From Gemmatimonadota bacterium (lineage in GTDB: Bacteria; Gemmatimonadota; Gemmatimonadetes; Longimicrobiales; Gaopeijiaceae), in contig JBDHHQ010000047.1 of NCBI GenBank assembly GCA_039589315.1, positions 1 to 51,507 on the forward strand: a DNA stretch of 51,507 nt. Direction: 5' to 3'. A program made the translations under genes and the position numbers. The stretch's first letter is position 1. Every line of letters begins with the position of its first letter. The notes below the pieces were generated by a model. That model worked only from the letters and a program-made list of their open reading frames with translations. It was not told the origin of the DNA and ran no database searches. This document shows, in pieces, positions 11,602-39,971 of the stretch.

Positions 11602-11630
11602 TCATTCTACAAATGACATTGATAGAATGA
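11602..11630. promoter_or_regulatory. Inverted repeat, putative repressor operator
   Basis: TCATTCTACAAATG-A-CATTGATAGAATGA, 12/14 arm match, containing a TAGAAT -10-like hexamer, at the start of permease 1. Confidence 0.6.
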
Positions 11631-11729
11631 TAGTGGATCCCTCGACGCGCCCAGGCTCCTCGGACCCCGAGCGACTCGGGTCACTGGCTGTCCGCGTGTA
11701 CCGGCTGTGCCTGTTCGCGTTTCCGCGCG

Positions 11730-14381
11730 GTGTTCGCCGTGTTCGAGGCGCTCGTGGCGAGGCGACGCCGGAAGGCCGGCGCGTTCCGGGCCGCTTTCTT
11801 CGCGATCCGCATGTGGATCGATGCCCTGAGCGAGGGCTGGGTGGCCCGGATACGACTACGGGACGACGGGAGGAGGGGAAGGATGCTCGACGATCTATGG
11901 ACCGACCTGAGGCACTCCATACGCGCCTTGGCCAAGTCTCCGGTGCACGCGTTCGTTCTGGTTGTGACGCTTGCACTCGGGGTCGGAGCCACCACCGCGA
12001 TCTTTTCGTTGTTGTACGGCGTTCTGTACACGCCCCTGCCGTACGACGACCCGGGCGAGCTCGTCTCGGTGGTACACCGCGCCACGAACGTGGAGGGTGT
12101 TGCCCCGCGTGGTCCCGGCGGGACCGACCTGGTCGATTACATGGACGGCGTGCCGTCCATCGACGGCCTGGGCGGGGTGCAAACCCTCGAAACCAACCTC
12201 AATGACGACGACGGCGCTGCCCGCGTCGTCATGGGCTGGACCACGCCGGACTTCTTTCAGGTGATCGGCGTCCAAGCCTCGCTGGGTCGTGTGCTGCGAG
12301 CCGACGACTGGGCCGGTGCGGACCGGGCCCGAATGGAGGATCCGGACTTCACGCCTCCGCCGATGGCGGTCCTGCTGAGTCACGGGCTCTGGGCTCGTCG
12401 CTTCGGCGAGGACCCGGACGTGCTCGGCCGCACGCTACGGCTCAACGGGCAGGCGATGAACGTGGTGGGAGTGCTGCCGCCGAGCTTTCGGTTGCACATG
12501 AGGGCCGACGCGGAGATCTCGCCTGACGTAGACGCGTGGGCGCTGATGCCCGTGCCCTTGATCGATGCCGGGCGGGGCCTCAGCGGACTCACCGTGATCG
12601 GTCGGCTGGCCGATGGGGCGACTCTCGATCGAGCCCGAGCCGAGATGGAGGGCTTGCTGGAGGAGCTGACCGCGGCGCATGAGGTGCACGCTCGGCTGGG
12701 GACCGTCGTAGAGGTCGATCCACTTCACGACCAGGTGGTCGGTCCCGCGAAAGCCCTGTTGTGGCCCCTGTTCGGAGCGGTGAGCCTGCTCCTCCTGATC
12801 GCTTGTGTCAACGTGGCCAACCTCCTTCTCGTACGGGCGTCGGCTCGGGAGCGCGAGTTCGCGGTTCGCGCGGCGCTCGGCGTAGGGCGTGCCCGCGTTG
12901 TGCGCCAGCTACTCACGGAGAGCCTGGTAGTAGCGCTCCTGGGGACGGGCGCAGGCGTCGTGCTCGCGCTGTTGGCCGTCGAGGGTCTGGTCGGGCTGGG
13001 ACCGGCCAACCTGCCCCGGCTCGAGGCGGTCTCCCTGGAGGGTAGCGTGCTCTGGATCAGTGTGGTCGCGAGCGTGATGGTGGCCGTGACGTTCGGGCTC
13101 GCCCCGGCGCTGACGTCGGCGCGCGTCTCCGGCCAGTCACTCCTGTCCACGCGGGGAGTCGGCACGGTGGGGCCAGCGGGAGTCCAGCTGCGGCGCTGGC
13201 TCATCGTGGGCGAGCTCGCCGTCTCGGTGGTCCTGGTCGCCGGCGCCGGCTTGCTGGTCAGGAGCTTCGCGCAGCTTCGCGCGGTCGACCTGGGCGTCGA
13301 CCCTGAATCGGTCGTCGCCGTCGACGTTGCCGTCCCCTTCTTCAGCTATCGTGACGACGCGACCCGGTCGGCGTTTTTCGTCCAACTGGCCGAGCGAGCG
13401 CAGACGATCTCCGGCGTGAAGGCCGCGGGGGTCACGGCCCGATTGCCCCTCGAGCCGGGGAGCGGCGGTACGTGGAACGCCCCCTACGCGCCCGTCGGCG
13501 AGGTCATAGAGGCCGAGGACGCACCGCGTGCCCGGTACCGCTCGATGACGCCGGGCGCCATGGAAGCCCTCGGTCTCCGTTTCCGCGAGGGCCGTGGCTT
13601 CGTGGCCGCGGACGAGCAGCCAGGTGACCTGGTGAGCGTGGTCGTGGACTCGGGGCTGGCGGGCCGGTATTGGCCAGACGGCGCGGTCGGTCAGTCGCTG
13701 GAGATTCGTGTGGCCGGCTACACCGGGCAGCCATCCACCGTCCAGGCCCGCGTGGTGGGCGTTACGGAGCCAGCACGGTTCACGTCCGTCGCGGAAGCGG
13801 ACGAGCCCACGATCTACGTACCTTACCACCAGTTCACCCCGGTCGACGGTACGCTCGTCCTCCGCTCCGATCGAGATGCCGCCGAGATCGCCGCTGAGGT
13901 GCGCTCGATCGTCGGTTCACTGGACGGAAGCGTTCCGGTCTTCTCGGTACGCACCTTCGGCGCGGTGGTCGACGGAGCAACCGCGGAGGCCCGCCACGCT
14001 CTCTGGCTCATGGGGGCTTTCGCGGTCACCGCGCTGATTCTCGCAGCCGTGGGTCTGTACGGCGTAATCTCGACGCTGGCGCTTCAGCGCACCCGTGAGA
14101 TCGGTGTGCGGCTCGCGCTGGGCGCGGTCGGCGGCGACATCGCCCGGATGATCGGGGTCGACGGAGTCAGGTTGGTCGTGCCGGGCCTGCTCGCAGGGCT
14201 GGTGCTGGCGTTCCTGGCCAGCCCGCTCCTGCGCGCGTTGCTCTACCAGGTCGAGCCCGTCGATCCCGCGACCCTTGGCGTCACCGTGATCGTATTGGGA
14301 ACGGTCGGATTGGTGGCGAGCTTGCTCCCGGCGGCCCGTGCCGCCCGAATGGACCCGGTGGAGGCGCTCCGTGAAGAGTGA
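11730..14381 (+). CDS. ADOP-type duplicated ABC permease 1 (N-terminal extension frameshifted; internal ATG at 11883)
   Basis: DLRHSIRAL...VTLALGVGATTAIFS, LLIACVNVANLLL, R.REFAVRAALG, second FtsX half GLYGV...REIGVRLALGA, PAARAARMDPVEALREE. Confidence 0.92.
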   Translation: MFAVFEALVARRRRKAGAFRAAFFAIRMWIDALSEGWVARIRLRDDGRRGRMLDDLWTDLRHSIRALAKSPVHAFVLVVTLALGVGATTAIFSLLYGVLYTPLPYDDPGELVSVVHRATNVEGVAPRGPGGTDLVDYMDGVPSIDGLGGVQTLETNLNDDDGAARVVMGWTTPDFFQVIGVQASLGRVLRADDWAGADRARMEDPDFTPPPMAVLLSHGLWARRFGEDPDVLGRTLRLNGQAMNVVGVLPPSFRLHMRADAEISPDVDAWALMPVPLIDAGRGLSGLTVIGRLADGATLDRARAEMEGLLEELTAAHEVHARLGTVVEVDPLHDQVVGPAKALLWPLFGAVSLLLLIACVNVANLLLVRASAREREFAVRAALGVGRARVVRQLLTESLVVALLGTGAGVVLALLAVEGLVGLGPANLPRLEAVSLEGSVLWISVVASVMVAVTFGLAPALTSARVSGQSLLSTRGVGTVGPAGVQLRRWLIVGELAVSVVLVAGAGLLVRSFAQLRAVDLGVDPESVVAVDVAVPFFSYRDDATRSAFFVQLAERAQTISGVKAAGVTARLPLEPGSGGTWNAPYAPVGEVIEAEDAPRARYRSMTPGAMEALGLRFREGRGFVAADEQPGDLVSVVVDSGLAGRYWPDGAVGQSLEIRVAGYTGQPSTVQARVVGVTEPARFTSVAEADEPTIYVPYHQFTPVDGTLVLRSDRDAAEIAAEVRSIVGSLDGSVPVFSVRTFGAVVDGATAEARHALWLMGAFAVTALILAAVGLYGVISTLALQRTREIGVRLALGAVGGDIARMIGVDGVRLVVPGLLAGLVLAFLASPLLRALLYQVEPVDPATLGVTVIVLGTVGLVASLLPAARAARMDPVEALREE

Positions 14382-14429
14382 TCCATGAACGACCCGGTGG
14401 AGGCGCTCCGTGAGGACTGATCCATGAGC
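14352..14429 (+). repeat. 39-bp imperfect tandem duplication of the permease 3' end/PadR start
   Basis: GACCCGGTGGAGGCGCTCCGTGAAGAGTGATCCATGAAC then GACCCGGTGGAGGCGCTCCGTGAGGACTGATCCATGAGC (3 mismatches). Confidence 0.9.
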
Positions 14430-14780
14430 GACGCGAGTCCCGAGTCCTTCTTGCCACTCAGCGCGCCTGTGTACGGCGTGCTGCTGACACTGGGTGAGCA
14501 GGCAATGCACGGTTATGGCATCATCGTCGAGTTCGAGGCGCGGACCGGGCAGGAGGGAGCGCTCCTGCCCGGGTCCCTGTACAACACGCTGGCCCGCATG
14601 CTTTCACAGGGTCTCGTGGAGGAGGTCCCGCCCCCGGAGCCCGGCCGGGACCCCAGAAAGCGGTATTACCGAGCCACGGATCTGGGTAGGAACGTCGCGA
14701 AGGCCGAATCGGAACGACTACGGTCGTTGTTGCGGTTGGCGGAGGAGCGAAATCTGGGCGGGCAGCCGTCGACGGCGTAG
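14424..14780 (+). CDS. PadR family transcriptional regulator (type A, FLPL)
   Basis: FLPLS...VLLTL...HGYGII...PGSLYNTLARM...RKRYYRATDLG. Confidence 0.93.
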   Translation: MSDASPESFLPLSAPVYGVLLTLGEQAMHGYGIIVEFEARTGQEGALLPGSLYNTLARMLSQGLVEEVPPPEPGRDPRKRYYRATDLGRNVAKAESERLRSLLRLAEERNLGGQPSTA

Positions 14781-14915: not shown

Positions 14916-17645
14916 CTACTCCACGGACATCGCCCGCACCGGATCCACCCGCGTAGCCCGGCGGGCCGGGAGGTACGCAGCCACGGCCGCAACCGCCAGC
15001 AGAAAGGCAGAGACGCCCACCAGCACGACGGGGTCCGTCGGAGATACCCCGAACAGGAGGCTTGCCAACGCACGGGTCCCCGCGAGCGAGGCCAGAAGGC
15101 CCAGGACGAGCCCCACACCCGTGAGGGCGAGCCCCCGGCCCACCACCAGGCGCAGCACCGAGCGCTTGTCGGCCCCCAGCGCCATGCGGATGCCGATCTC
15201 CCGGCTCCGCCGACCCACGAGCTGCGAGAGCACGCCCTGAATGCCCACCGCGGCCAGCAAGAGGGCGAACCCGGCGAAGGTCACCAGGAGCAGCGCGTTG
15301 AAGCGGGGCTGTGCCAGCGAGGCGGAGATCACATCCTCCATCGGCTGGATCTGATACAGGGGCTGATCGGGGTTGATGCGGCTGACCGTGGTCCGGAGGG
15401 TTGCCGCCAGGGCCGCGAAATCGTTGGCGGTCCGGACCAGTACCGCCATGTCCCTCGGTGTGAGTTGTCCGACGGGGAGGTACATGTGGGCCTGGGTCTC
15501 GCGGTCCAGCCCTCCGTGCTTTACGCTCCCGACAACGCCGATGATGCGGCGGGACCCGGCCCGGTCCACCCGTTGACCGATGGGATCCTCGCCGGGCCAG
15601 AACCGGCGGGCGGCCTCCTCGTCGATGACCGCCACGGGCTCGCCGTCGACGTTGTCGGTGGCGTCGAAGTCGCGGCCCCGGAGCAGCGGAATCCGGGCGG
15701 TCTGGAAGTAGTCGCCCGCCACGTAGCGCATGTTGGCCAGGTAGTCCTCCCCCGTTTCGCGCCCCTCGATCGTGAAGGATGCCGTGTTGTTGCCCGCGGC
15801 CAGGGGCAGCCGGTTCACGGCGCCGACGCTGCTGACCCCCGGGAGCCCGGCGATCCGGTCCAGGAGCTCGGCGTAGAACACCCGAACGTCCTCGGTCTCG
15901 GGGTAGCGGATCTCGAGGGGCGCCACCCGGAAGCTCACGGTGTTGGCCGGATCGAAGCCGGGAGCGACGTCGACGATGCGGCCGAAGCTCCGGAGCATCA
16001 GTCCCGAGCCGACCAGCAGCAGAAGCGCCAGTGCGATCTCGGCGACGACGAGCCCGTCCTTGAGCCGATGGCCCCGGCGGCTGGAGGCGCCCCGGCCGCC
16101 GCCTTCCTTCAGCGTCGCCTGGAGGTCCGCGGCGGACGCCTGGAGCGCGGGAAGGGTCGCGAACAACACACCGGCCAGGACCGAAAGGGCTGCGGTGAAG
16201 GCCAGCACCCGCCCATCCAGAGCCACCGCGTCGAGACGAGGGATGTCCGCCGGTCCGAGGCGCACCAGTACGCGGTTCAGGCTCCCGCCCAGGGCCAGGC
16301 CGAGCGCTCCGCCGGCCAGAGAGAGCATGACCCCTTCGGTGACCAGCTGCGAGCTGATGCGTCCCCGGCTCGCACCCATCGACATGCGGACCGCGATCTC
16401 GCGCTCCCGGCCGAGGGACCGGGCCAGGAACAGGTTGGAGACGTTCGCACACGCGATCAGGAAGACCAGGCCCACGGCGCCCAGCAGGACCAGGAGCGCC
16501 GTCTCGACATCCCCCACCATCTCGTCCCGGGCCGAGAAGACCCCGACGTTCCATCCCGAGTCGTCCAGGAAGGTGGTCTGCTCTCGGGCCATCTCCCGGA
16601 CGTTCCCGGCAAGCACGTCGGCGTTGGCCTGCGCGGCGTCGAACGAAACCCCGTCGGTGAGTCGCCCGATCACCTGCAGGTACTCGTTGGTCCACCGATT
16701 CGGGTCCAGCTCCTCGGGGGTGAAGGAGAGGGGCACCAGGAGCTCGGCCTGGCTCTCGAGGTCCTCGGGCACGACGCCCACGACCGTGTACGCCTCACCG
16801 CCCATCCGCATCGAGGTGCCCACGACCCCGGGATCCGCACCGAACCGGCGCTGCCACAGCTCGTGGCTCAGCACCACGACCCGGTCGTTGCCGGGCTCCG
16901 CTTCCTCCTCGAGGAACGTCCGGCCGATCTCTGCGTCGATTCGGAGGACCTGGAAGTAGCCCGGCGTGACGGCGGCGCCCAGAATGCGCTCCGGACCCTC
17001 GTCCCCGCTCACGTCGTAGCGGCCGAAGTCGATGGCGGCGAGCTCCTCGAAGACCTCGTTCTTCTCGCGATAGTCGACGAAGCCCGGGGCCGAGACGGAG
17101 GCGATGAGATCGAACTTCTCGTACGTATGGTGCAGGGTCGCGAGCCGGTCCGACTCGGGATAGGGAAGCGCGTTCAACAGGACCGAGTTGACCACGCTGA
17201 ACATCGACGTGTTGGCACCGATCCCAACGGCCAGCGTCAGGACCACCACGAAGGCGAATGCCGGGTGATGCATCAGATGTCGCCAGGCGTAGCGCGCGTC
17301 GGCAAGTAGATTCTGGAACACGGTCGTCCTCCCTCTCCCCCTCATCGATGACGGTGGCTCCGGACCCGCCGAACCCGGAGGTCCGGAGCGTTCACTGCGG
17401 CCTGTCCCGCCCCCACGAATCCGCTCGGTGAATGCCGTGGCCACGAGATCCGTCCCACCGCGAAGCCACGCCCGGGGCCATCCGGCGAGCCGTCTCCGGG
17501 TCGTCTCGTCCCGGAGCAGGTCCCGGAAGTCCTCGGCCATCTGGTTCCGATAGGCCGCGCGGAACGGGCGAGGCAGCAGCACCAGCAGCGTGCGATAGAC
17601 CGCGACCGATGCGCGCTCGACGACGGATCCCACGTGGTGGGTCAT
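14916..17645 (-). CDS. ADOP-type duplicated ABC permease 2
   Basis: TLAVGIGANTSMFSVVN, LIACANVSNL, REIAVRMSMGA, PARRATRVDP; ATGA overlap with PadR stop. Confidence 0.95.
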   Translation of the reverse strand: MTHHVGSVVERASVAVYRTLLVLLPRPFRAAYRNQMAEDFRDLLRDETTRRRLAGWPRAWLRGGTDLVATAFTERIRGGGTGRSERSGPPGSAGPEPPSSMRGRGRTTVFQNLLADARYAWRHLMHHPAFAFVVVLTLAVGIGANTSMFSVVNSVLLNALPYPESDRLATLHHTYEKFDLIASVSAPGFVDYREKNEVFEELAAIDFGRYDVSGDEGPERILGAAVTPGYFQVLRIDAEIGRTFLEEEAEPGNDRVVVLSHELWQRRFGADPGVVGTSMRMGGEAYTVVGVVPEDLESQAELLVPLSFTPEELDPNRWTNEYLQVIGRLTDGVSFDAAQANADVLAGNVREMAREQTTFLDDSGWNVGVFSARDEMVGDVETALLVLLGAVGLVFLIACANVSNLFLARSLGREREIAVRMSMGASRGRISSQLVTEGVMLSLAGGALGLALGGSLNRVLVRLGPADIPRLDAVALDGRVLAFTAALSVLAGVLFATLPALQASAADLQATLKEGGGRGASSRRGHRLKDGLVVAEIALALLLLVGSGLMLRSFGRIVDVAPGFDPANTVSFRVAPLEIRYPETEDVRVFYAELLDRIAGLPGVSSVGAVNRLPLAAGNNTASFTIEGRETGEDYLANMRYVAGDYFQTARIPLLRGRDFDATDNVDGEPVAVIDEEAARRFWPGEDPIGQRVDRAGSRRIIGVVGSVKHGGLDRETQAHMYLPVGQLTPRDMAVLVRTANDFAALAATLRTTVSRINPDQPLYQIQPMEDVISASLAQPRFNALLLVTFAGFALLLAAVGIQGVLSQLVGRRSREIGIRMALGADKRSVLRLVVGRGLALTGVGLVLGLLASLAGTRALASLLFGVSPTDPVVLVGVSAFLLAVAAVAAYLPARRATRVDPVRAMSVE

Positions 17646-17995
17646 CCCTCGGGTACCAGGTCCTTGGCACGCGCCAGGTCAGCCAGGTACGCCAGGCGCC
17701 CCCCTTCGGCCGTGAGCACCTGCTGGCCCAGCTCGGTGATCTCGAACAGCTGACGGGGATGACGCCCCCGCTCGGCCTCGCGCTCCTCACCCTCCCGGAC
17801 CAGCCCCTCCTGGGCCAGGCGCCGGAGTGCGCCGTACACGGTGCCGGGCCCCACCGCCTTCCCGGAGGACGCTTCCAGCTGCTTCATGATGCCGTAGCCG
17901 TGGCGCGGCTCGTCCACCAACGCCAGCAGCACGTGAAACGTGGTGGCGGTCAGAGGAAGGAACGCGTCCAGCGAGCGTTCGGATCGTGCTGGCAT
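17642..17995 (-). CDS. PadR family transcriptional regulator (type A, FLPL)
   Basis: FLPLTATTFHVLLAL...HGYGIM...GPGTVYGALRRL...RQLFEITELG. Confidence 0.93.
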   Translation of the reverse strand: MPARSERSLDAFLPLTATTFHVLLALVDEPRHGYGIMKQLEASSGKAVGPGTVYGALRRLAQEGLVREGEEREAERGRHPRQLFEITELGQQVLTAEGGRLAYLADLARAKDLVPEG

Positions 17996-18211: not shown

Positions 18212-20860
18212 TCACTCCCCTTTCAGAGACGCCACCGGATCCACCCGTGCCGTTCGGCGCGCCGGCAGGTAGGTCGACGCCATGGCAGCCAGCGCCAGCA
18301 CTCCACCCGCGGCAAGGAACGCCAGCGGATCCCTGGCTTGGACATCGTAGAGCATGGAGCCCAGGAGCCCGACGGCCCAGAACGCGATGCCGATTCCGGC
18401 CGCCATCCCCAGCAGCACGGGGGCGAGTCCCTCTTGGACGAACATGCGCGACAGCGCCGCGCTGCTCGCGCCGACCGCCATGCGGATCCCGATCTCCTTC
18501 CTCCGCAGCACAACCGAGTACGCCACGACGCCGTACACGCCGAGGATCGACAGAAGCAACGCCGCGAGGGCGAATCCGCCGAGAACGTGTGCGCTGACTC
18601 GCTCGGTGGCGATGGCCACCCGGCGGTCCTCGAGGGCGGGACCGATGTCGTACAGCGGCTGATTGGGGTCGAGCTCGGCCAGGGCCGTGCGCACCGGGCC
18701 CACCTGGTCGTCGGACGCCGCCGTGCGAAGCAGGAAGACCTGCCCGAGCCACGGCTCCTGGGCCATGGGCGAGAAGACAGCCAGGAGGGGAGGCCCCGGT
18801 TCGATCCCCACACCCTGGAGATCCTCGACCACGCCCACCACCTCACGCAGAACCGGATCAGTGCTCACGCCGGTTCGAATGAAACGACGCCACGAACCCG
18901 TGCTGATCCGCTTCCCGATCGCGCTCTCGCCCGGCCATGCCCGCTCCGCGAGGGCCCGGGTCATGATCACGACCGGCGTCGAGCCTGCCACGTCCTGCTC
19001 CGTGAAGCCCCGGCCCTCGATCACCTCGATTCCCATCACGTCGAAGTAGTCCGGGGATACGGCGTTCTCGGTGGCGGCACTCCGGTATTCTTCGCCCTCG
19101 AGCCCATCGATCTGGAATAGCTTTCGCGGCCCGACCGTGGGGTTGGGCATCGCGGCCACCGCCGCCTTCTCCACGCCTGGAAGGCCGCGCAGCCGATCCA
19201 GCGCGGACGCGGAGAACTGCGCGATCTCGACGTCGAAGGAATACCGGTCGTCATCCAGCTCGGTCTGGGCCCGTAGCACTCCGCTCAGCGAATAGCCGGG
19301 GTCCCGATCCAGCAGGTTACCGAGACTGCGGAGCAGCACGCCGCTTCCAGCGAGGAGCACGATGGCCATGGTGACCTCGGCGGCCACGAGGCCCCTGAGG
19401 AGCCGCCTGCCCCGGGCGGTCAGCGTCTGGCGACTGGTGGCCAACGCGGCGGCCGGCGGCCGGCTGGCCGCCGCGTGGGCGGGCAGCAGTCCGAACAGAA
19501 TCGTCGCTCCGACGGCCAGGCCGGCCGAGAACAGGATCGTGATGGCGTCGACCGACAGCTCTTCGACCCGGGGCAGGGTGCTCCCGGCCCCCCTTTGGAG
19601 CACTTCGACCCCGCCGTAGGCCAGGACCAGGCCCACGAGTCCGCCAGTGCCCGAGAGCAAGAGCCCTTCGGTCAGGAGCTGGCGCGTGATCCGCAGGCGG
19701 CTCGCGCCCAAAGCTTTTCGGGCGGCCCACTCTCCGGACCGGCCGACGCTCCGGACGAGCTGCAGTCCGGAGAGGTTCACGCACACCATGACCAGCAGCA
19801 GCCCTGAGGCGCCCAGCAGAATCCACAGCGGACGGCGGACCGAGCCCACCAGCCGGGTGCGGAGGTCGTACGCCCGGGTGATCCATCCTTCACTGCCGCG
19901 AGATTCCAGGAACTCCGTGAGAACGCCCTCGGCTTCGGCCCGAGCCTGTTCCAGCGATGTCCCGGGAGCCAGCCGCCCGATCATCCGAAGGGTCGAGACG
20001 AGGTCGCCCTGCAGCGATGCGAACGCTTCCAGGGGAAGGTATATATCGACCGGCCGGTCGCCGGCTCCGCTTCGGGCGTCGAGCTCTTGAACGAGGCGGA
20101 CCTCGGGAGGCATTACCCCGATCACCTCGTAGCTCTCACCCCCCAACGTCAGCGTCCGGCCCAGGGCGGCCGTAGGGCCTGACAGGTGCTGGTCGGCGAA
20201 CTCGTGACTCAGGACCGCCACCCGGGCACCCGCGGCCTCTTCCGCTCGGTTGAAGACTCGGCCCACGACCGGCTGCAGACCCGTGATGGGAAAGAACGTG
20301 TCGCTCGTGCGCGTGGCCGTGACCCGGACCGCCCGGTCCGCCGTAGCCAGGTTGAATGCCGTCGTCGAAAACACCGCCAAGTCCACGGACCGCAGCCGCT
20401 GGCCCAGCTCGCGGAACTGGGCGTAGGAGTACTGCCAGTCCTGGATGGACCGCTCGGGCATCTCCTGGCTGAAGTAGACGAGTCCCTCGGGCTCGGGAAG
20501 CGGCAGCTGCCGAAGCACGACTCCGTTCACGACGCTGAACAGCGCCGCATTCACCCCGATTCCGAGCCCCAGCGTCACGACCATAACGGCCGTGAGTCCT
20601 GGCGATCTGGCCAACGTGCGCACGGCCGCTCGCAGATCCCCGTTCCATCCGTTCATCATCCCCTCCCGTCGCCACAGCCAAACCGCATCGATGAAGCACG
20701 TGCATGTCCTGAACAGCATTCCTGGACCCGATCGGCCGGACCGGATCGCGAATCCCACCTCACCCTCCCACTCCCGTCGCCAGTCCTCACGGGCGCCGGG
20801 CGGCGCCAGGCGCGAGGCCACGTCGAACAGCCACCGGTAGGGGTAGGGTAGGGGGGACAT
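18212..20860 (-). CDS. ADOP-type duplicated ABC permease 3
   Basis: Start MSPLPYPY overlaps PadR stop (TGATG); TLGLGIGVNAALFSVVN, GVYGVVAY...EIGIRMAVGA, PARRTARVDP. Confidence 0.95.
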   Translation of the reverse strand: MSPLPYPYRWLFDVASRLAPPGAREDWRREWEGEVGFAIRSGRSGPGMLFRTCTCFIDAVWLWRREGMMNGWNGDLRAAVRTLARSPGLTAVMVVTLGLGIGVNAALFSVVNGVVLRQLPLPEPEGLVYFSQEMPERSIQDWQYSYAQFRELGQRLRSVDLAVFSTTAFNLATADRAVRVTATRTSDTFFPITGLQPVVGRVFNRAEEAAGARVAVLSHEFADQHLSGPTAALGRTLTLGGESYEVIGVMPPEVRLVQELDARSGAGDRPVDIYLPLEAFASLQGDLVSTLRMIGRLAPGTSLEQARAEAEGVLTEFLESRGSEGWITRAYDLRTRLVGSVRRPLWILLGASGLLLVMVCVNLSGLQLVRSVGRSGEWAARKALGASRLRITRQLLTEGLLLSGTGGLVGLVLAYGGVEVLQRGAGSTLPRVEELSVDAITILFSAGLAVGATILFGLLPAHAAASRPPAAALATSRQTLTARGRRLLRGLVAAEVTMAIVLLAGSGVLLRSLGNLLDRDPGYSLSGVLRAQTELDDDRYSFDVEIAQFSASALDRLRGLPGVEKAAVAAMPNPTVGPRKLFQIDGLEGEEYRSAATENAVSPDYFDVMGIEVIEGRGFTEQDVAGSTPVVIMTRALAERAWPGESAIGKRISTGSWRRFIRTGVSTDPVLREVVGVVEDLQGVGIEPGPPLLAVFSPMAQEPWLGQVFLLRTAASDDQVGPVRTALAELDPNQPLYDIGPALEDRRVAIATERVSAHVLGGFALAALLLSILGVYGVVAYSVVLRRKEIGIRMAVGASSAALSRMFVQEGLAPVLLGMAAGIGIAFWAVGLLGSMLYDVQARDPLAFLAAGGVLALAAMASTYLPARRTARVDPVASLKGE

Positions 20861-21326: not shown

Positions 21327-21384
21327 CTATCTATAACTCTAGGTAGCTATCTAATACTCTAGGTAGCGGATTGGGTTCCCGCAA
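21327..21384 (-). promoter_or_regulatory. Promoter with two tandem 20-bp palindromic operator-like sites
   Basis: CTATCTATAACTCTAGGTAG (21327-21346) and CTATCTAATACTCTAGGTAG (21347-21366); minus TTGCGG-N17-TAGAGT overlaps them. Confidence 0.7.
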
Positions 21385-31208: not shown

Positions 31209-31294
31209 GGCGTCCGCGCCCTCACGGTGGTCGAACGGGTGCGGGCTGCCTCGTGGGTCCGCGGAGCTCGTGGCCCGGTGCTCCCGACGTTCAT
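31205..31294 (-). CDS. Possible 29-aa linker ORF between PadR and permease 5
   Basis: ATG overlaps the PadR stop (ATGA 31294-31291) and its TGA overlaps the permease ATG (ATGA 31208-31205). Confidence 0.4.
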   Translation of the reverse strand: MNVGSTGPRAPRTHEAARTRSTTVRARTP

Positions 31295-31602
31295 CGCGCG
31301 CCTTCCACGCGTAGCCCGAGCGATTCGGCCAGACCGGCGACGCGTCCCGCTCCGGCCTCGAGCGCCTTCACCCCGTCTCCGGTCAGCTCGTAGTACTTTC
31401 GCCGTGGCCGACCCTCGCGATCGGCGGCGCGCTGGTCCTCCCACCGGGAACGCACGAGGCCGCTCCGTTTGAGCCGCCCGAGAGTGGGGTACACGGTCCC
31501 CGACGGCAGACCGGTGCGCGTCACGATGTCCAGGCCGTAGGCGTCGCCGGCCCGGACTGCTGCGAGGATCTGGAGCGAGGTGATGCCGAGGGATCGAGGC
31601 AT
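31291..31602 (-). CDS. PadR family transcriptional regulator (type B, TGLPxGTVYP)
   Basis: AVRAGDAYGLDIVTRTGLPSGTVYP...RPRRKYYELT. Confidence 0.93.
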   Translation of the reverse strand: MPRSLGITSLQILAAVRAGDAYGLDIVTRTGLPSGTVYPTLGRLKRSGLVRSRWEDQRAADREGRPRRKYYELTGDGVKALEAGAGRVAGLAESLGLRVEGAR

Positions 31603-31622: not shown

Positions 31623-31673
31623 GGTTGATAGAAGTGTAAGGTATATAGTATTCAACCTTCACGCTGGTGACAA
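31623..31673 (-). promoter_or_regulatory. Sigma70-like promoter of PadR-permease 5
   Basis: Minus TTGTCA (31673-31668), 17 nt, TACTAT (31650-31645); GGTTGA...TCAACC inverted arms bracket the AT-rich patch. Confidence 0.65.
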
Positions 31674-31932: not shown

Positions 31933-32814
31933 CTACAATCCCTCGGCGACCCGCTTGAGCTCACCCATGAAGTGCGCCCAGCCGAAGGGGAAGTCGCTCA
32001 CGTCCACGGCCCGGATGAACCCGGAGTGGACGAGCGTCACCCGAGTCCCGTCTCCATCGGGCTCCAGCATCCAGGTCACCGACTGGGTAGGCACCGAGGT
32101 GTCCCCTCGCCAGTCCGGCCACGAGATCGTGAGCTTGCTGTTGGGCTCGAGCTCCAGGATCTCCATCGCCGGACCCTGGTGCTCGATCTCGTCAGGAGCC
32201 TGCCAGCCCAGGTCGAAGGTGCCTCCGACGCGAAGGTCGACAGTGGCGTCCCTGGCCATCCACTGGTTCAGCGCCTCAGGCTCGGTCAACGCCCGGAACA
32301 CCTTCTCGGGTGGCGCGTCGATTTCGATGGAAAGCGTCACCTCGGGACTCGGATCGGCGAAGTCGGGGCGCATGATCTGGCCATGGCCGGCCGTGTGGGC
32401 CGTCAGGTTGCCCAGCGTGAACCGCCACCAGTCGTCCACGAGCTCTTTGGGGCGCGGGCCGTCGATGACCCGGTCGAACGTGTGCTCGACCGCGACCCTG
32501 GTCGCCGAGCCGTGGTCGATCTCCTCGGGCGTGAGCGTGATTCCCACCCGTGTGGGCACGCCGAACATGGTCCAGTCGAACGCCAGCCGCGCGTCGGGCT
32601 CGATGTCCACGACGGATCCCATGGCATCGGACTCGTCGGGCGTCCCGACCGTGTGACGTCCCCAGAACCGGAACGCGCCGCCCGGCCTGGCCTCGACGCG
32701 GGCGTGCTCCGCGAACCACTGCTCGAGCTCGGCGTCCTTGGTGAGCGCCCGGAAGATCCGGTCCGCCGGGGCAGGGATGGGGAACGAGTACTCGTACGTC
32801 CAGCCGTCAGTCAT
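31933..32814 (-). CDS. Tandem SRPBCC (AHA1-like) domain protein
   Basis: Two repeats I.AP...[IV]FRALT...L.QW, each followed by GG.F and T.V...H. Confidence 0.9.
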   Translation of the reverse strand: MTDGWTYEYSFPIPAPADRIFRALTKDAELEQWFAEHARVEARPGGAFRFWGRHTVGTPDESDAMGSVVDIEPDARLAFDWTMFGVPTRVGITLTPEEIDHGSATRVAVEHTFDRVIDGPRPKELVDDWWRFTLGNLTAHTAGHGQIMRPDFADPSPEVTLSIEIDAPPEKVFRALTEPEALNQWMARDATVDLRVGGTFDLGWQAPDEIEHQGPAMEILELEPNSKLTISWPDWRGDTSVPTQSVTWMLEPDGDGTRVTLVHSGFIRAVDVSDFPFGWAHFMGELKRVAEGL

Positions 32815-33130
32815 CGGAGCTCTCCACGAAGCGTTTGAGGTTCTGCAGGCGCGCCGCCCAGAAGACGCGGTAGGCGTCCAGCCACCGATCGATCTCGCGC
32901 AGGGCCTCCGGGTTCAGCCGGTAGACGCGCCACTGCGCCTCCTTCCGCTGCTGCACGAGCCCGGCGTCCCGGAGCACCTTGAGGTGCCGGGAGATCGCGG
33001 GCCGGCTGACGGGGAATCGATCTGCCAGGTCGCCGGCCGAATGCTCGCCGTGCGCGAGAAGGTCGAGGATCTCGCGACGGGTCCCATCAGCCAGGGCATC
33101 GAACAGGGCTTCTCGGTTGTATGTAACCAT
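32807..33130 (-). CDS. ArsR/SmtB family transcriptional regulator
   Basis: FDALADGTRREIL, SRPAISRHLKVLRDAGLV, W...YR.FW..RL..L. Confidence 0.93.
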   Translation of the reverse strand: MVTYNREALFDALADGTRREILDLLAHGEHSAGDLADRFPVSRPAISRHLKVLRDAGLVQQRKEAQWRVYRLNPEALREIDRWLDAYRVFWAARLQNLKRFVESSDD

Positions 33131-33357: not shown

Positions 33358-36300
33358 TTACCTCTCCGTGTCGTCCGCCACCGGCTGGGTGAGCTGTCGC
33401 AATCGGTCGAGCACGTCATCGAGCTGCTCGCGCAGCTCGTCGTACCGGACGTGCGCGTCCCGGTTCGGACGGCTGTCGGCCTTGGTCACCATGCCGTAGA
33501 GGTAGTCCACCTGGTCGAGGAGCATGGGCGGCGGGTAGCTCCCGGTCCGCCGAGTGACCAGCTCGGCCCAGAGCTGACCCGCCTGCTCGGCCGCCTCGCT
33601 GTCCGGCGCGACCTGCTCCCGGAGCGCCTCCAGCTCACTCACCGCCTGACTGCCCTCGGCAAGCGCGTCCCGGATCCGGAGCGACAGCTCCTCCTGCTGC
33701 TGGAGGTCAGCGAGTGTGGTGCCGTCCGCGGCCACGCGCGGATCGATCAGGACCTCCAGGTCACGGGTCTGGCTCCAGTCGCCCATGGTGAGTCGGACCT
33801 GGTACCGTCCCGGGGCCACCAGCGGCCCGTCACTGCCCGGTCGGCCGTAGAGACCGGTGGCCATGACCGGAGCGCGCACGCCCGGATGACGCAGGTCCCA
33901 GGTGAAGCGGTGGTGTCCCACCCCCGCTTCGAGCCTCGGCTCGCCCTGGCGAGTCGGATAGGGGGCCCTCATCTGCTGGTCCTCGCTGTACGTGTACCCC
34001 TCCGACGCGCTCGTGAAGCCCCGGATCACCCGACCGGATCCGTCCAGGATCTCCAGCGTGAGCTCGCCGGAGGCGGGCCGGGCGAGTCGGTAGTCGATCA
34101 TGGCCCCCGGCTCGGGGAACTCCGGGTCGTGCGAGCGCACGCCCTCGCGCAGCATGGTGGATTCGTACCGCATGCGGTACGCGGCCCGGGGCTCGAACAG
34201 GTGGGCGTCGGCGGTCATGGCGGCGCCCTCGAGTTGTTGGAGAAGCGTCACGTTGTCGAGGATCCAGAAGCCCCGGCCCATGGTGGAGAATGCGAGGTCG
34301 TTTTGGACCCATTCGATGTCGGTGATGGGTGTCCTGGGCAGGTCGAGCTGGAGCTCCTGCCAGCTCTGCCCGTCATCGAACGACACGAACATGCCGTACT
34401 CGGTCCCCGCGTAGAGTAGTCCCGGCCTCACTTCGTCCTCGCGCACCACTCGCACGGGGAAGTCCTCCGGAATGCCGTTGGTGCCGTCGGTGAGCCGCGT
34501 CCAGGTCTGCCCGTAGTCGGTCGTCTTGAAGACGTAGGGGCTGAAGTCGTTCAGCCGGAAGCGGTACCCGGTCACGTAGGCCGTGCCCGCCGCGTGAGGA
34601 GACGGGTCGATGGCGTTGATGCGACCCTCGGCCGGCCACGGGGGCGTGACGTCGGTCCAGCTGGCGCCGTTGTCGCGGGTGACGTGCACCGGGCCGTCGT
34701 TGGACCCGGACCAGATCACGCCCGGCTCCACCGGAGACTCCTCGATCACGTAGATGACGCTGAAGTGCTCCTCACCGGTGATGTCGTTGGTGATGGGCTC
34801 GCCGGAGCGGATCTGCCGCTCGGGGAGGTTGGCGGTCAGATCGGGCGAGATCTCGTCCCAGGTGAGCCCGCCGTCCGTCGTCCGATGCACGAACTGCGAG
34901 CCGTGATAGACCACGTCGGGGTCGTGTGGCGAGACCTCGACCGGGGTCGTGCGCTGGAAGCGGTACTTCAGCTTCGCGGGGTTCACCCCGTACAGGTGCT
35001 GGGCACCCACGTAGCGGCCCTGGGCCTGGCCCGTGACGAAGCTGAACCGATCGAAGGTGCCCTTGCAGGGCGCGTACACCACCTCCGAGCCGGGCTTGGG
35101 CACGGCCGGGCCCGTCTCGCAGCCGCCGATGGCCTTCCACCATGCGGTGGGCCCTCCAGGCGCGGGCTGGGCCGGGGGCAGGCTGGGCACGCCGATGGTC
35201 GTGTTGTCCTGCTGTCCCGCGTAGAGCCAGTAGGGGAAGCGGTCGTCCACGTCGACCTGATACAGCTCGGCGGTGGCCTGGTTGTGCTGCGAGGACCAGC
35301 TCTTACCGCCGTCCTGCGTGACGTTGGCGCCGCCGTCGTTCGACTGGATGAAGATGTCCGGATTCTCCGGGTTGATCCACATGTCGTGGTTATCGCCGTG
35401 AGGCGTCGAGACGATCTCCCAGGTGCGTCCGCCGTCGACCGACTTGAAGAAGCGCTCGTTGTTGACCCAGACGACGTCGGCGTTCGTGGGGTCGGCATCG
35501 ACGTTCGTGTAGTAGAAAGGCCGTTCCGTGAGCTCGACGAGGCCGCCCGGATCGTCTTCCGGATAGCGGCCGCCGCTCATGCGCTGCCACGTCTCGCCCC
35601 GATCGTCGGAGCGGTAGAGCCCCTCTTCCGGCTCCGGCGCCTCCACCAGCGCGTAGACGCGGTCCGGATCCGCCGCCGAGACCGCCAGGTCGATCTTCCC
35701 GATCAGGCCGGGCGGGAGCCCCTCTGTCACCTGGCGCCACGAGTCACCTCCGTCGGTGCTCTTCCAGATGCCGTCACCGCAGTCGGGACCGCAGCCGCTG
35801 ATGATCGTCCATGGCTTGCGCTCACCCCGCCACATGGCGGCGTAGATGACGGTGGGGTCGGCGGGGTGCAGCTCCAGGTCGATGGCGCCCACGGAGTCGG
35901 AGACGAAGTGCACGTTCTCCCACGTCGTGCCGCCATCGGTGGAGCGATAGAGACCGCGTTCGTCGTTCCGCCCGAACGGCGAGCCCAGGGCCGCGACGAA
36001 GACGTGGTTCGCATCGTCGGGGTGCACCTCGACCGCCCCGATCTGCCCCGTGTTCTCGAGGCCAAGGAAGTCCCACGTCTCACCGGCGTCCGTGGAGCGG
36101 TAGATGCCCCGGCCGCCGATCACGTTGCTCCGTATGCCGTCGGTGCCGGTGCCGGCGTAGACGACGTCGGGGTCGGAAGGTGCCACGCGCACCGCGCCCA
36201 TGGTGGACGAGGTCCTGATGAAGCCGTCGGTGGTCGGAAACCAGGTGATCCCGTAGTTCTCGGTCTTCCACACCCCGCCGCCGCCTCGAACGCCGAGGTA

Positions 36301-36495
36301 GAAGGTGCCCGGAGTGGCGGGATGCCCCGCCACCGTCGTCGAGGCCCCGCCCCTCGACGGCCCCACCTGGCGGTAGGACAGGTCCTGGAAGAGAGAGGGG
36401 TCGACGGTCCCGCTCGTGTCCTGAGCCGCCACGAGGCCGGGGATGGTGCTGAGGCTCATCCAGGCGAACGCCAGGCCGGAAAGGAGCGAGCGCAC
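33358..36495 (-). CDS. Secreted BNR-repeat/VPS10 (sortilin)-like glycosyl hydrolase-type protein
   Basis: GTG start with signal peptide; many S.D.G.TW Asp-boxes; HGDNHDMW, QSNDGG, GQQDN, LYAGTEYG, TMGRGFWILD. Confidence 0.9.
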   Translation of the reverse strand: MRSLLSGLAFAWMSLSTIPGLVAAQDTSGTVDPSLFQDLSYRQVGPSRGGASTTVAGHPATPGTFYLGVRGGGGVWKTENYGITWFPTTDGFIRTSSTMGAVRVAPSDPDVVYAGTGTDGIRSNVIGGRGIYRSTDAGETWDFLGLENTGQIGAVEVHPDDANHVFVAALGSPFGRNDERGLYRSTDGGTTWENVHFVSDSVGAIDLELHPADPTVIYAAMWRGERKPWTIISGCGPDCGDGIWKSTDGGDSWRQVTEGLPPGLIGKIDLAVSAADPDRVYALVEAPEPEEGLYRSDDRGETWQRMSGGRYPEDDPGGLVELTERPFYYTNVDADPTNADVVWVNNERFFKSVDGGRTWEIVSTPHGDNHDMWINPENPDIFIQSNDGGANVTQDGGKSWSSQHNQATAELYQVDVDDRFPYWLYAGQQDNTTIGVPSLPPAQPAPGGPTAWWKAIGGCETGPAVPKPGSEVVYAPCKGTFDRFSFVTGQAQGRYVGAQHLYGVNPAKLKYRFQRTTPVEVSPHDPDVVYHGSQFVHRTTDGGLTWDEISPDLTANLPERQIRSGEPITNDITGEEHFSVIYVIEESPVEPGVIWSGSNDGPVHVTRDNGASWTDVTPPWPAEGRINAIDPSPHAAGTAYVTGYRFRLNDFSPYVFKTTDYGQTWTRLTDGTNGIPEDFPVRVVREDEVRPGLLYAGTEYGMFVSFDDGQSWQELQLDLPRTPITDIEWVQNDLAFSTMGRGFWILDNVTLLQQLEGAAMTADAHLFEPRAAYRMRYESTMLREGVRSHDPEFPEPGAMIDYRLARPASGELTLEILDGSGRVIRGFTSASEGYTYSEDQQMRAPYPTRQGEPRLEAGVGHHRFTWDLRHPGVRAPVMATGLYGRPGSDGPLVAPGRYQVRLTMGDWSQTRDLEVLIDPRVAADGTTLADLQQQEELSLRIRDALAEGSQAVSELEALREQVAPDSEAAEQAGQLWAELVTRRTGSYPPPMLLDQVDYLYGMVTKADSRPNRDAHVRYDELREQLDDVLDRLRQLTQPVADDTER

Positions 36496-36945
36496 CGTTC
36501 GTGGCCTCTCGGGCTGGGGCGTGCGGGGCGCCGTTGGCCGTGACGTGCTTGGCCCGGCCAGCCGGGGCGCGCAGGGCGACGTCCGCACGAATAGACGCGA
36601 CCGGCGCGTGGAGACGTGTTGAGGAGTGGTCTGGGTCGTGTGATGCGTTTCCGTGCTCATGGCACCCCCGTGGGTCCGAGATCCGTCACCCTGCCGACCT
36701 ACCGAGAGCGTTGCTAGCGGAGGGAAGTCCCGAGGCTCGTTGTCGAGTCCGGCAGCTCTGCGTCCAGCGAGCCGAGGTGGCATCGCCGCCGCATCGGCCT
36801 CGCCATCGTCACGTCCGCCAAGTTGGACTCGGGTGCCGGGTCCCGGCAAGGCGAGGGGAGAGTAGACGGGTGCATGGCCAAGTCCCGGCCGCCCCAGCCC
36901 CGGCGCGGCATGACCGTCCCAGACCGCGGAATCGGCCGGGGCTGC

Positions 36946-39645
36946 TCAAGCAGGAAGGATCGTCCGCGGATCGATCTCGGCGGCTCGGCGCGACGGGAGA
37001 TAGGTGGCGCACATCCCGACCAGAAGGAGGAAGGCTCCCACCGCCACATACGTCCCGGGGTCGGTCGGCTCCGTTTTGAACAGCAGGGCAGACAGCACGC
37101 GTGACGCCGCCAGCGCCACCGCCGTCCCGAGCAGAACACCCGTAATCACCAGCCGGGCACCGTGCTTGACCAGCATGAGGACGATGGAGTTTGGTCTGCC
37201 ACCCAACGCGAGGCGGATCCCGATCTCGTGGCCACGTCGCCTCACGGTGAACGACACCAGCCCGTAGACCCCGAAGGCGGCCAGCATCACCGCGACCGCC
37301 GCCACGACGGTGAGGAAGGTCGGCAGGAAGCGGTCGAGCACTACGACGTCGGAATAGCGCTCGTCGACTGCGCGGAGCTGGGACAGGGTCGCTTCGGCGT
37401 CGATCTTCCTGATTTCGCGCCGAACGGATGCGGCCAGATCGGAGGGCAGCGAGTCGCAGCGCAGAAGGAGCGTCATGCCTCGGGCAGGGACGTTCCGGTG
37501 CCACACGTAGACGCTCGCGACCTGTGGAAGCACAGGGTGCACGTCGGACACGTCGCCCACGACACCGATCACACGGCTCGAGGGTCCGCTCGGCCCCTCC
37601 CAGCGAAGGAGCTGTCCCACGGCTCCTTCTCCAGGCCAGAGGCGGCGCGCGAGGGTCTCCCCCACGACGACCTCCGTCTGCCCCACGACGACTTCCGCCT
37701 CATCCGCTACCACCGCCGCCTGAGCCGCGGTACGTCCGGTTTCACCGAAGACCGTCCCCGCGAGTACCGGCACCTCCGTGGTCCGGAAGTAGTCATCCGT
37801 AACGACGCGCCAGTCGGCGGTGACGTACTCCTCGATCGCCGCGTCCAGGCGACCCAGCTCCGTGAACTTCCTCGGGGAAAGGTCGAAGAACCGCATGTCG
37901 GTCGCGGCGACGCCCGTAATGCCCGGGATGCCCCGCAGTCCCTCCACCACCTCTCGGTACCGCGTCGGCACCTCTGCGCCGGCGTGCCGTGTGGAGAGCT
38001 GGACTTCCACTGCCATCAGCCCCTCTGTCCTGAACCCCGAGTCCACGCTTTGGAGCTGCTGGAAGGATCTGGCGAGCAGCCCCGCCACCACCAGGAGCGT
38101 CATGGCCATGGCCACCTGCCCGACGACCAGCCCGTCCCGGATCCGACGGCCCGACCTCGAGGTCCCCCCACCGGTCTCCGAAAGGGCCCGCTGGAGCCTG
38201 AGGCGGGCCGCCTGTAGGGCAGAACCGAGCCCGACCCCGAGTCCCTCGAGCGCCGATGCGAGCAGCGCGAAGGAAAGGACGCTCCAATCCAGGGTGACTT
38301 CGCTCATCCGCGGCACGAGCTCCGGCTGGGCGGCAACGATGGGGATCAGCACGTAGGCGGCCGCGATCCCCACGACGGCTCCGCCGAGGCCGACGATCGC
38401 GCTCTCCGAGAGCAGCTGCCGGACGACGCCCCACCTGCCGGCGCCGAGGGCTGAGCGCACCCCGATCTCCGTTTGCCGCGCGGTGGTCCGCGCCATCAGG
38501 AGATTCGAGATGTTGGCCCCGATGAGCAGGAGCAGAAGGCCCAGGGAAGAAACCAAGGTGACTGCGACCAGCCTGACCTGAGGCCCTACCAGGTAGTCGG
38601 TCAGGGGGATCAGATGCGCGCTCCAGCCTGCGTTCGAGGCCGGGTAGCGCTGCGAGAGGTCGGCTGCGATCCGCTGGACTTCGTCCAGGGCCTCGGGCAG
38701 TGCGACCCCGGGACGGAGTCGCCCGTACACCTGGAGCCTGTGGTCCTCGCGCGGCACATTGGGATCCGGTGCCCTCGGTAGCCAGACATCCACTCCCTGG
38801 AGCACCGAGAGCTCCTCGGGTGCGACGCCGACGATGACGAATGAGCCTTCATCGAGGCGTAGCGTCCGCCCCACGACTTGCGGATCCGCGCCGAATCGCC
38901 GTGCCCAGAGCTCGTGGCTCAGGACGGCGGTGGGCGCAGCCTGCCCCGGAAGCCCCTCTCCCGGAAGGAACAGCCGGCCGTGCGCTGGAGCCACCCGCAG
39001 CACCCGGAACAGGGACGACGTGACGAAACCGGCGGCCAGCGACTCCGCGTCGTCCTCGCTCAGGAACGTGACCTCTTCCTGGTGCACGGCGGCAAGGTCG
39101 AGAACGCCCTGGCCTCGGTCCCGGAAATCGATGAAGTCGGGCTGCGAAGCGTGGAAGTCCACTCCCTGTGGATTGATCTCGGAGAGCCGGACCAATCGGC
39201 CGGGCTCGGGGAAGGGGATCGGCCGAAGGACGACGGCGTTGAAGGCGCTGAAGATCGTGGTGCTGGCTCCGATGCCCACCCCGAGGGCAATCATCAACGC
39301 GATCGTGAAGACGGGGCTCCGCGTCAGCGTCGTGTAGGCGTACTCCAGGTCGCGAGCCACGGCGCGCCCTACGGCGAGCCCGCGAAGTTGGGGAAGGTCC
39401 TGCGTGTAGTCGGAGGACTGAGGTGGTCCCAGGCGTGCGGCCACGTATCGCAGGGCGATCCGCATCACGCACCACCAATACCATCCGGTCGCGTAGCTGT
39501 GGGAGCGCGCCTCGGCGGTCTCGTGGTACTCCTCCCACAGATCGCCGAGGATCCCTTCTCGCGCTGTCGGGTCCGCCAGGACCAGGCTCAGGAGGCGCTC
39601 GGCCAGCTCGGGCGGGCCGCGGCCTCCCCCCAACCATGGGCTCAT
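36946..39645 (-). CDS. ADOP-type duplicated ABC permease 6
   Basis: ATGA overlap with PadR stop; ALGVGIGASTTIFS, ANISNLLMAR, EIGVRSALGA, EIGIRLALG, PSRRAAEIDP. Confidence 0.95.
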   Translation of the reverse strand: MSPWLGGGRGPPELAERLLSLVLADPTAREGILGDLWEEYHETAEARSHSYATGWYWWCVMRIALRYVAARLGPPQSSDYTQDLPQLRGLAVGRAVARDLEYAYTTLTRSPVFTIALMIALGVGIGASTTIFSAFNAVVLRPIPFPEPGRLVRLSEINPQGVDFHASQPDFIDFRDRGQGVLDLAAVHQEEVTFLSEDDAESLAAGFVTSSLFRVLRVAPAHGRLFLPGEGLPGQAAPTAVLSHELWARRFGADPQVVGRTLRLDEGSFVIVGVAPEELSVLQGVDVWLPRAPDPNVPREDHRLQVYGRLRPGVALPEALDEVQRIAADLSQRYPASNAGWSAHLIPLTDYLVGPQVRLVAVTLVSSLGLLLLLIGANISNLLMARTTARQTEIGVRSALGAGRWGVVRQLLSESAIVGLGGAVVGIAAAYVLIPIVAAQPELVPRMSEVTLDWSVLSFALLASALEGLGVGLGSALQAARLRLQRALSETGGGTSRSGRRIRDGLVVGQVAMAMTLLVVAGLLARSFQQLQSVDSGFRTEGLMAVEVQLSTRHAGAEVPTRYREVVEGLRGIPGITGVAATDMRFFDLSPRKFTELGRLDAAIEEYVTADWRVVTDDYFRTTEVPVLAGTVFGETGRTAAQAAVVADEAEVVVGQTEVVVGETLARRLWPGEGAVGQLLRWEGPSGPSSRVIGVVGDVSDVHPVLPQVASVYVWHRNVPARGMTLLLRCDSLPSDLAASVRREIRKIDAEATLSQLRAVDERYSDVVVLDRFLPTFLTVVAAVAVMLAAFGVYGLVSFTVRRRGHEIGIRLALGGRPNSIVLMLVKHGARLVITGVLLGTAVALAASRVLSALLFKTEPTDPGTYVAVGAFLLLVGMCATYLPSRRAAEIDPRTILPA

Positions 39646-39971
39646 GCTTCGTCCAGAATCGCCTCGAGGCCGTCCCAGAGGTTCTGCAGCGCCGCCCGGG
39701 ACTCCCTCAGCGCCGTCACTCCCGCGGGAGTGACCTTGAAGTACCGCCTGGCCCGCCCGCCTCGATCGGGCCCCGCCTCCCGAAGCTCGGACTCGAGAAG
39801 CCCCTTGGAAACCATGCGATCCAGCGTGATGTACGAGGCCCCGTGAGTCACCGTCCGGTTGGCCCGTTTCTGCAGCTCCCCCCGGATCGCACGCCCGTAC
39901 GCCCCGTCACCGAGGCGCAGGATCGCGAGCAGCACCATCTGCTCGAATTCGCCGAGAAAGCCGTTGCCCAT
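39642..39971 (-). CDS. PadR family transcriptional regulator (type C, LGxFE)
   Basis: LGEFEQMVLLAIL...GASYITLDRMVSKG...RGGRARRYF. Confidence 0.93.
   Translation of the reverse strand: MGNGFLGEFEQMVLLAILRLGDGAYGRAIRGELQKRANRTVTHGASYITLDRMVSKGLLESELREAGPDRGGRARRYFKVTPAGVTALRESRAALQNLWDGLEAILDEA

Follow-up and report, generated by a model that had tools for sequence, protein, structure and literature searches.

The stretch of DNA analyzed here (the window) consists of positions 1 to 51,507 of contig JBDHHQ010000047.1, from a Gemmatimonadota bacterium (GenBank assembly GCA_039589315.1). Between positions 11627 and 39971 it carries six small genes encoding PadR-type regulators and six encoding ADOP permeases, which are duplicated MacB-like proteins. 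A PadR gene and a permease gene make up a pair, and the permease begins with a short extension, called here the head. PadRs and heads both fall into types, lettered A, B, and C in the window, and a fourth, D, is found elsewhere in the genome. In five of the six units PadR precedes the permease on the minus strand, pair 1 being the exception, and in four of the six the stop codon of PadR overlaps the start of the permease. The features are:

11627 to 11882, plus strand: beginning of permease 1, with a broken type-A head; ATG at 11627, the 5' part in one frame and the 3' part in the permease frame.
11883 to 14381, plus strand: core of the ADOP permease of pair 1, with its own strong run resembling a Shine-Dalgarno (SD) sequence and ATG at 11883.
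14424 to 14780, plus strand: type-A PadR of pair 1, 3' of its own permease (reversed order).
14916 to 17645, minus strand: ADOP permease of pair 2; type-A head at about 17406 to 17645; internal SD and GTG at 17321.
17642 to 17995, minus strand: type-A PadR of pair 2, its stop overlapping the permease start (ATGA); the member used in the complex model.
18212 to 20860, minus strand: ADOP permease of pair 3; type-B head at 20660 to 20860; internal SD and ATG at 20659.
20860 to 21174, minus strand: type-B PadR of pair 3; start approximate, the open reading frame (ORF) being open to 21249.
21327 to 21346: type-B palindrome, putative operator of pair 3 (19.5 bits).
23733 to 26405, minus strand: ADOP permease of pair 4; type-C head at 26148 to 26405; internal SD and ATG at 26147.
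26402 to 26743, minus strand: type-C PadR of pair 4, overlapping the permease start (GTGA).
26793 to 26813: type-C palindrome, putative operator of pair 4 (15.4 bits).
28605 to 31208, minus strand: ADOP permease of pair 5; type-B head at 31005 to 31208; internal restart not detected.
31291 to 31602, minus strand: type-B PadR of pair 5, 82 nucleotides 5' of the permease start.
31641 to 31660: type-B palindrome, putative operator of pair 5 (14.1 bits).
36946 to 39645, minus strand: ADOP permease of pair 6; type-C head at about 39427 to 39645 (30.9 bits on NF038404, cutoff 35); internal restart not detected.
39642 to 39971, minus strand: type-C PadR of pair 6, overlapping the permease start (ATGA).
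40037 to 40057, 5' of PadR: weak type-C palindrome of pair 6 (7.8 bits).

All six PadRs pass the cutoff of PF03551 (27 bits) with scores of 40 to 61 and, with lengths of 103 to 118 residues from their likely starts, are of the small single-domain type (about 100 to 120 residues). The six permeases pass the cutoff of TIGR03434 (ADOP, 622.3 bits) with 709 to 918 bits, and in each of them MacB_PCD and FtsX are duplicated, with two stretches per Pfam domain; no match to the ATPase domain PF00005 lies on the window's contig among the 64 matches listed. A preliminary description of the region, made from the letters alone, had cited TIGR03433/TIGR03434 as a known combination of neighboring PadR and ADOP genes. 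The permease model applies here, but the PadR model does not: the six PadRs score 31 to 41 bits on TIGR03433, none reaching the cutoff of 101.8, and TIGR03433 corresponds to type D, outside the window.

When typed with profiles built from other genomes only, the PadRs of pairs 1 to 6 are A, A, B, C, B, and C (109 to 153 bits for their own type, at most 51 for another), and heads 2 to 6 are A, B, C, B, and C (67, 56, 41, 73, and 68 bits for their own type, at most 11 for another). Both fragments of head 1 score as type A (18 and 19 bits). Three PadR types with two members each, each type beside its own kind of extension, had been claimed from the sequence at first reading, and this is borne out, down to the motifs then quoted. 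A perfect match of two, two, and two would arise by chance once in 15 times, however, so the window's six pairs are weak evidence by themselves. The genome as a whole has 73 PadR matches and 97 ADOP starts, and in 67 of 67 adjacent pairs the type of the PadR is the type of the head. Here the PadRs and the heads were clustered separately and the results then compared: there are four groups, A with 22 pairs, B with 6, C with 27, and D with 12 (adjusted Rand index [ARI] 1.0 at K=4, and 0.99 to 0.87 at K=5 to 7). Among relatives, chosen by PadR score alone and typed with profiles from this genome, PadR and head agree wherever both could be typed, in 255 of 255 pairs (A 110, B 38, C 88, D 19). Since kin are not independent, these totals are to be read as counts and not as a p-value, with no mismatch in 322 pairs (67 from this genome and 255 from relatives). 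Genome and relatives together make the match firm. Mixed pairings, which the preliminary description had named as a refutation if common, are not seen, and the idea that mixed PadR/head pairs are common is ruled out by the same agreement. The observation is real and general beyond the window.

Perhaps the matching is finer still. Pair-level specificity within a type is possible because PadRs of one type average only 35 to 40% identity. A within-type mirror test, which is confounded by adjacency, gave r=0.24 for type C (p=0.008), r=0.06 for type A (not significant), and r=0.65 for type D, and it is not taken as proof that single pairs are insulated. In one Bacteroidota (Chondrinema) a single PadR precedes two C-headed permeases.

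Another refutation named beforehand was that the extension should track the phylogeny of the permease core, and this also is not seen. On a core tree (FastTree; 91 of 97 cores, those of at least 600 residues, 64 of them typed; deep branches weak), head type changes 29 times, compared with 30.9±1.9 when types are shuffled (p=0.22), which rules out head type following the core tree. On the PadR tree there are 3 changes and on the head tree 4, the minimum being 3. Where two typed cores are well-supported sisters, their types differ in five of seven cases. The six cores of the window are mutually 32 to 38% identical, with no pattern by type; no excess identity among cores of the same type was found in any core segment, and the type signal stops at the first residues of the core. 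Loci L130 and L138, compared with one pair of this genome, have 75 to 80% identity in PadR, 49 to 56% in the head, and 31% in the core. Of 30 unpaired permease starts, those with no PadR upstream, 27 lack a head (at most 5.1 bits, with fewer than 300 nucleotides visible in three of them), the other three being pair 1 of the window and two cases at contig edges. With types scattered over the cores and the orphans headless, PadR and head have been gained, lost, and moved together.

Such a pattern by itself could be due to linkage: PadR and head are adjacent DNA, shuffled as a block, and the head has another role, such as membrane anchoring or targeting, without binding PadR. Adjacency is indeed the rule, since 66 of the 67 units of this genome have both genes next to each other and in order, and it is just at the core start that the type signal ends. 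Linkage accounts less well for matches that survive a change in arrangement. Among 16 regions 5' of PadRs with no or a weak head call, four showed an upstream permease with a visible start, and in three of these four reversed-order permeases the visible head matches in type (56, 51, and 13.8 bits); pair 1 of the window is a further reversed-order match. On Actinomycetota plasmid records, B-type PadRs neighbor unrelated proteins in which a weak B-like stretch (13 to 17 bits) lies at the start, the end, or the middle. The total lack of mismatches and the absence of heads where PadR is absent also speak against linkage alone.

In several proteins from the databases a B-type PadR is fused to head and core; most of these lose the reading frame close by and are probably artefacts of indels, and they were left unused. 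In Nonomuraea, an HD-type protein (L162:2722-3777, plus strand) beside a type-B PadR has a B-like stretch about 200 residues inside (17 bits).

What, then, are the heads? The preliminary description knew of no mechanism for such pairs, but one has been proposed: Ravi et al. 2024 (PMC11237479; bioRxiv 10.1101/2020.09.24.301986) put forward HAAS–PadR dyads, fusions to FtsX-TM and MacB/PCD included, as an alternative two-component system. The dyad combines a stand-alone small PadR with a short N-terminal cytoplasmic module of three helices, carried by diverse membrane proteins, and its proposed role is signaling from membrane to gene (PMC11237479). Heads A, B, and C likewise occur beside a stand-alone PadR gene and joined to varied membrane proteins. 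Type D of this genome is the HAAS–PadR system itself (PF22564; NF038403): its head matches NF038403 (perm_prefix_1), with a weak HAAS match, and is paired with a TIGR03433 PadR, one type-D PadR scoring 128 on that model. Type C corresponds to NF038404 (perm_prefix_2), matched by 24 of the 26 members in this genome (best E 7.6e-14); in the window, head 6 falls below the cutoff and head 4 has no match. The window thus resembles the TIGR03433/TIGR03434 (padR_acidobact/ADOP) pairs in its six permeases and its type-C heads but differs in its PadRs and in heads A and B, which match no Pfam or NCBIfam model. Unlike HAAS, heads A, B, and C lack the GxP/FG motif and have no detectable relation to D. 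The GxP kink of the third HAAS helix is absent from their consensus lines, and the HAAS profile (PF22564) finds 2 of 26 C heads, at E of 0.03 or more, 0 of 22 A heads, and 0 of 2 B heads. Profile comparison by hhalign gives probabilities of 86 to 92% for A with C, 39 to 60% for B with C, 21 to 44% for A with B, and less than 1% for any of them with D. By this measure A, B, and C are one divergent group and D is separate; as they fail the HAAS sequence tests, heads A to C are not filed here as HAAS. The modeled head C has three helices (predicted local distance difference test [pLDDT] 89) and head A two (pLDDT 75); fold searches with the head models returned generic helical matches and no HAAS or DUF1048 (2O3L) structure, and no solved structure related to a head by sequence was found. 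Transmembrane heads were considered and are unlikely, with median peak hydropathy of 0.1 to 0.9 and 0 to 11% of heads above 1.6.

The preliminary description saw in the extension a PadR-binding module. Its linkage to PadR and independence of the core are supported by the comparisons above; direct binding has the support of a model with controls for type A. Two copies of PadR 2 folded with head 2 (type A alone) gave a complex score of 0.74, compared with 0.01 for the best control. Of 157 solved complexes, 116 reach the mark applied to this score, as do 2 of 215 mismatched pairs. Between runs, at least 95% of contacts coincide, and partner pLDDT is at least 84. In the model the head sits on one PadR subunit, at the HGY motif, the recognition helix, and the wing; helices 28-43 and 62-74 of the head cover PadR residues 32-37, 47-58, and 74-82, and the tightest contacts are with Y34 and Y54. 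These two, judging from the motifs, would be the equivalents of Tyr20 and Tyr42 of Bacillus subtilis PadR, in which two tyrosines and a lysine of the wing form the hot spot of DNA binding (PMC5728393). The predicted footprint of the head includes the equivalents of both tyrosines and of the basic residue of the wing, so that a bound head would be expected to exclude DNA. The model supports direct binding of the type-A head to PadR rather than demonstrating it. Its score, far above that of the controls, counts against linkage as the whole explanation, while the lack of a global co-variation signal, discussed below, counts in its favor; on balance, we find it very improbable that the head does not bind PadR at all.

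Each type also has its own palindrome upstream, which is likely the operator of its PadR. An own-type palindrome of at least 9 bits is found 5' of 43 of 64 cassettes of this genome, compared with 5 to 13% of local shuffles and 1 of 25 orphans. Pairs 3, 4, and 5 of the window have clear palindromes, and pair 6 has a weak one. The notion in the preliminary description that each pair is insulated from the others is accordingly doubtful: there are four channels, with 6 to 27 paralogues each and one kind of palindrome per type. One permease of this genome (C17:22109, minus strand) is the sole one lacking both head and PadR that has a strong type-B palindrome upstream (15.4 bits), and it is possibly regulated in trans. 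Some PadR–permease cassettes lie divergently, back to back, with one common intergenic region (C61 and C66 in this genome; L138, L288, and L308).

Just after the head, many permease genes appear able to start again. An in-frame SD and start codon lie at the core boundary in 42 of 67 headed genes of this genome, compared with 117 of 1365 controls, and in relatives in 120 of 221, compared with 138 of 1713 and 11 of 221 in two controls. The head is in frame with the core in 218 of 221. Unpaired permeases, a group that includes pair 1, have an SD and start at the same place in 14 of 28. The internal restart may have been left over from grafting, or it may give a second form of the protein that is maintained; because the cassettes are so divergent, the second possibility is favored. 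In several type-A fusions to proteins other than ADOPs a methionine directly follows the head, a hint that the restart could be general beyond ADOPs.

The reading that we consider probable is that of a membrane-tethered antirepressor cassette, in which a palindrome and a small PadR gene accompany a helical head of 60 to 70 residues grafted onto a membrane protein, and the head captures PadR off the DNA. At rest, PadR would repress its own operon at the palindrome. A signal at the permease would free the head for binding; the head would then cover the DNA-binding face of PadR and pull it off the DNA, and the operon would be induced. Since, according to the model, one PadR surface must fit both the operator and the head, a type code would arise. 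The internal restart would yield headless permease, holding the head below the level of the repressor at rest.

The same binding could serve regulation of the opposite sign. In the published proposal (PMC11237479), which the Lipocone paper repeats (PMC12419801), the resting head holds PadR at the membrane and the signal releases PadR onto its genes. The predicted interface would fit either sign, and a standing 1:1 complex would suit the four of the window's six pairs in which PadR and head are translationally coupled. However, small PadRs related to these repress their own operon at rest, the operon rising more than 100-fold in a Listeria lltR mutant (PMC6624303), and LftS is required for derepression (bioRxiv 10.1101/2023.07.27.550809). 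The restart, moreover, would reduce the head relative to the permease. We therefore regard release as unlikely. The passages of Ravi et al. on the dyads mention neither a type code nor an operator, an interface, or an internal restart; what they describe is release rather than capture.

Capture by the head has parallels elsewhere. In Listeria, LftR and LftS are a bicistronic small PadR and a partner needed for derepression; LftS carries DUF1048 (PMC4517056), which Ravi et al. place in HAAS (PMC11237479), and unlike the window's permeases it is annotated as a DUF1048 protein and not as a MacB-like fusion. In the SdpI/SdpR system of Bacillus, a membrane protein encoded beside an autorepressor sequesters it upon a signal, derepressing the operon (PMC2910880), and so may be a functional analogue of capture at the membrane. 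SdpR, however, is related to ArsR, SdpI is an unrelated small membrane protein, and the pair has neither a detachable typed head nor a code among paralogues. By analogy, the window system would work like HAAS–PadR and SdpI–SdpR.

The cassette evidently passes from one permease core to another, and also to unrelated membrane proteins, its parts always matched in type. The type-A head matches 12,002 clusters at E≤0.001; of the best 150 matches, 33 continue into ADOP, 67 into other proteins, mostly with multiple transmembrane segments, and 50 are short. Type-A PadRs are found with type-A heads on TMEM260-like proteins, and a type-A PadR and head also occur together at metagenome locus L378. The variety of carriers raises a third possibility, titration without a signal: the head binds constitutively, PadR and head form a positive-feedback toggle or rheostat, and about 70 permeases are switched stochastically without sensing anything. 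A single head found on many unrelated membrane proteins, and even alone (at L118), is hard to fit to one conformational relay, and the linker between head and core is variable (56% identity, compared with 73% for the head). Against this, LftRS answers to a specific compound (bioRxiv 10.1101/2023.07.27.550809), and titration of this kind seems to us quite unlikely.

The carriers of type-A cassettes include TMEM260-like (PF11028) glycosyltransferases (L098, L100, L173-L177, L185, L186, and others) and small proteins with two transmembrane segments (L170, L172, L182, L209). A short stand-alone type-A head ORF (L118:1990-2496, plus strand) lies 3' of a type-A PadR and is not attached to a membrane protein, and in P0123 and other type-A matches the head is joined to soluble domains, Clp_N repeats among them. 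Nothing useful came from plasmid searches with PadR A, head A, and P0082, and a metagenome scan with PadR 1 found nothing.

Several observations weigh against the antirepressor cassette. Adjacency of PadR and head must explain part of their match, Ward clustering at K=5 brings the ARI down to 0.78, and 19 of 274 typed PadRs in relatives have no head call. At locus L312 a type-A PadR lies directly 5' of a headless ADOP, and the reversed pair at L358 has no head. The B-like heads outside the phylum reach only 13 to 17 bits, and the one in Deinococcus did not score. The complex test is blind to specificity, as close cousins pass it too (10 of 12 colicin pairs), and its calibration covers neither our own alignments nor a job of two copies plus one. 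Inter-protein direct coupling analysis (DCA), at effective sequence numbers (Meff) of 89 to 111, did not rise above shuffled pairing overall, with maximum z of 6.2 for type A (4.8 to 6.7 shuffled) and 5.9 for type C (4.4 to 7.7 shuffled). On the predicted interface, type A has 7 of the top 20 couplings, compared with 0 to 2, but the model had seen the same alignment; type C has 1 of the top 20, compared with 0 to 3, and only its mean z is higher (0.135, compared with at most 0.07). Co-variation is weak support at best. Finally, the palindrome motifs were refined on other genomes but from seeds of a pooled search that included this one, and pairs 1 and 2 of the window have no good own-type palindrome (3.5 and 4.3 bits).

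A bolder extension of the cassette reading, which we offer tentatively as the less probable outcome, is that a genome may hold about 70 addressable, kinase-free switches from membrane to gene, belonging to a large and mostly unnamed class (the 12,002 type-A clusters), with a head that plugs into the recognition helix, orthogonal sets of operator, repressor, and head, and a conserved restart giving headed and headless forms. Added in any case are three head families missed by the HAAS models, two of them unnamed. The published dyad proposal becomes directly testable: specific residues of the DNA-binding face are named, each type has its candidate operators, and one genome naturally supplies both cognate and non-cognate combinations. 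The cassettes may also offer a reason for the expansion of ADOP "orphan permeases", with PadR genes, to about 100 copies per genome, and perhaps a source of orthogonal repressor and antirepressor parts for engineering. A literature search, made mostly without subscription papers, turned up no publication dealing with a PadR/head type code, the function of ADOPs, or a PadR–HAAS structure; Tables S2 and S4 of Ravi et al. may list further HAAS variants.

Within the window, pair 1 stands apart. Its motif VYRLCLFAFPR (11696-11728) is in a frame other than that of the permease body. The crossing of the two frames lies near 11729-11740, and the conserved part of the head appears to be short of about ten codons. 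The apparent frameshift may be biological or an assembly error; no covering reads were found, and the single genome of the same genus has no orthologue. At 14352-14427, a tandem duplication with a period of 39 nucleotides repeats the last codons and the stop of permease 1 and creates a tiny ORF between it and the PadR gene at 14424. A truncated AraC-type helix-turn-helix remnant lies at 11239-11601 (minus strand); its positions 11400-11531 are 87% identical to 27940-28071, within an intact DUF6597-AraC gene beside pair 5, which suggests a local rearrangement 5' of pair 1. Close relatives of PadR 5 are found in Gemmatimonadota assemblies. The other neighbors in the window are an S15 peptidase (546-2387, plus strand), a serpin (22258-23628, plus strand), ArsR with a double SRPBCC/AHSA1 gene (31933-33130, minus strand), and a Vps10/BNR repeat protein (33358-36849, minus strand).

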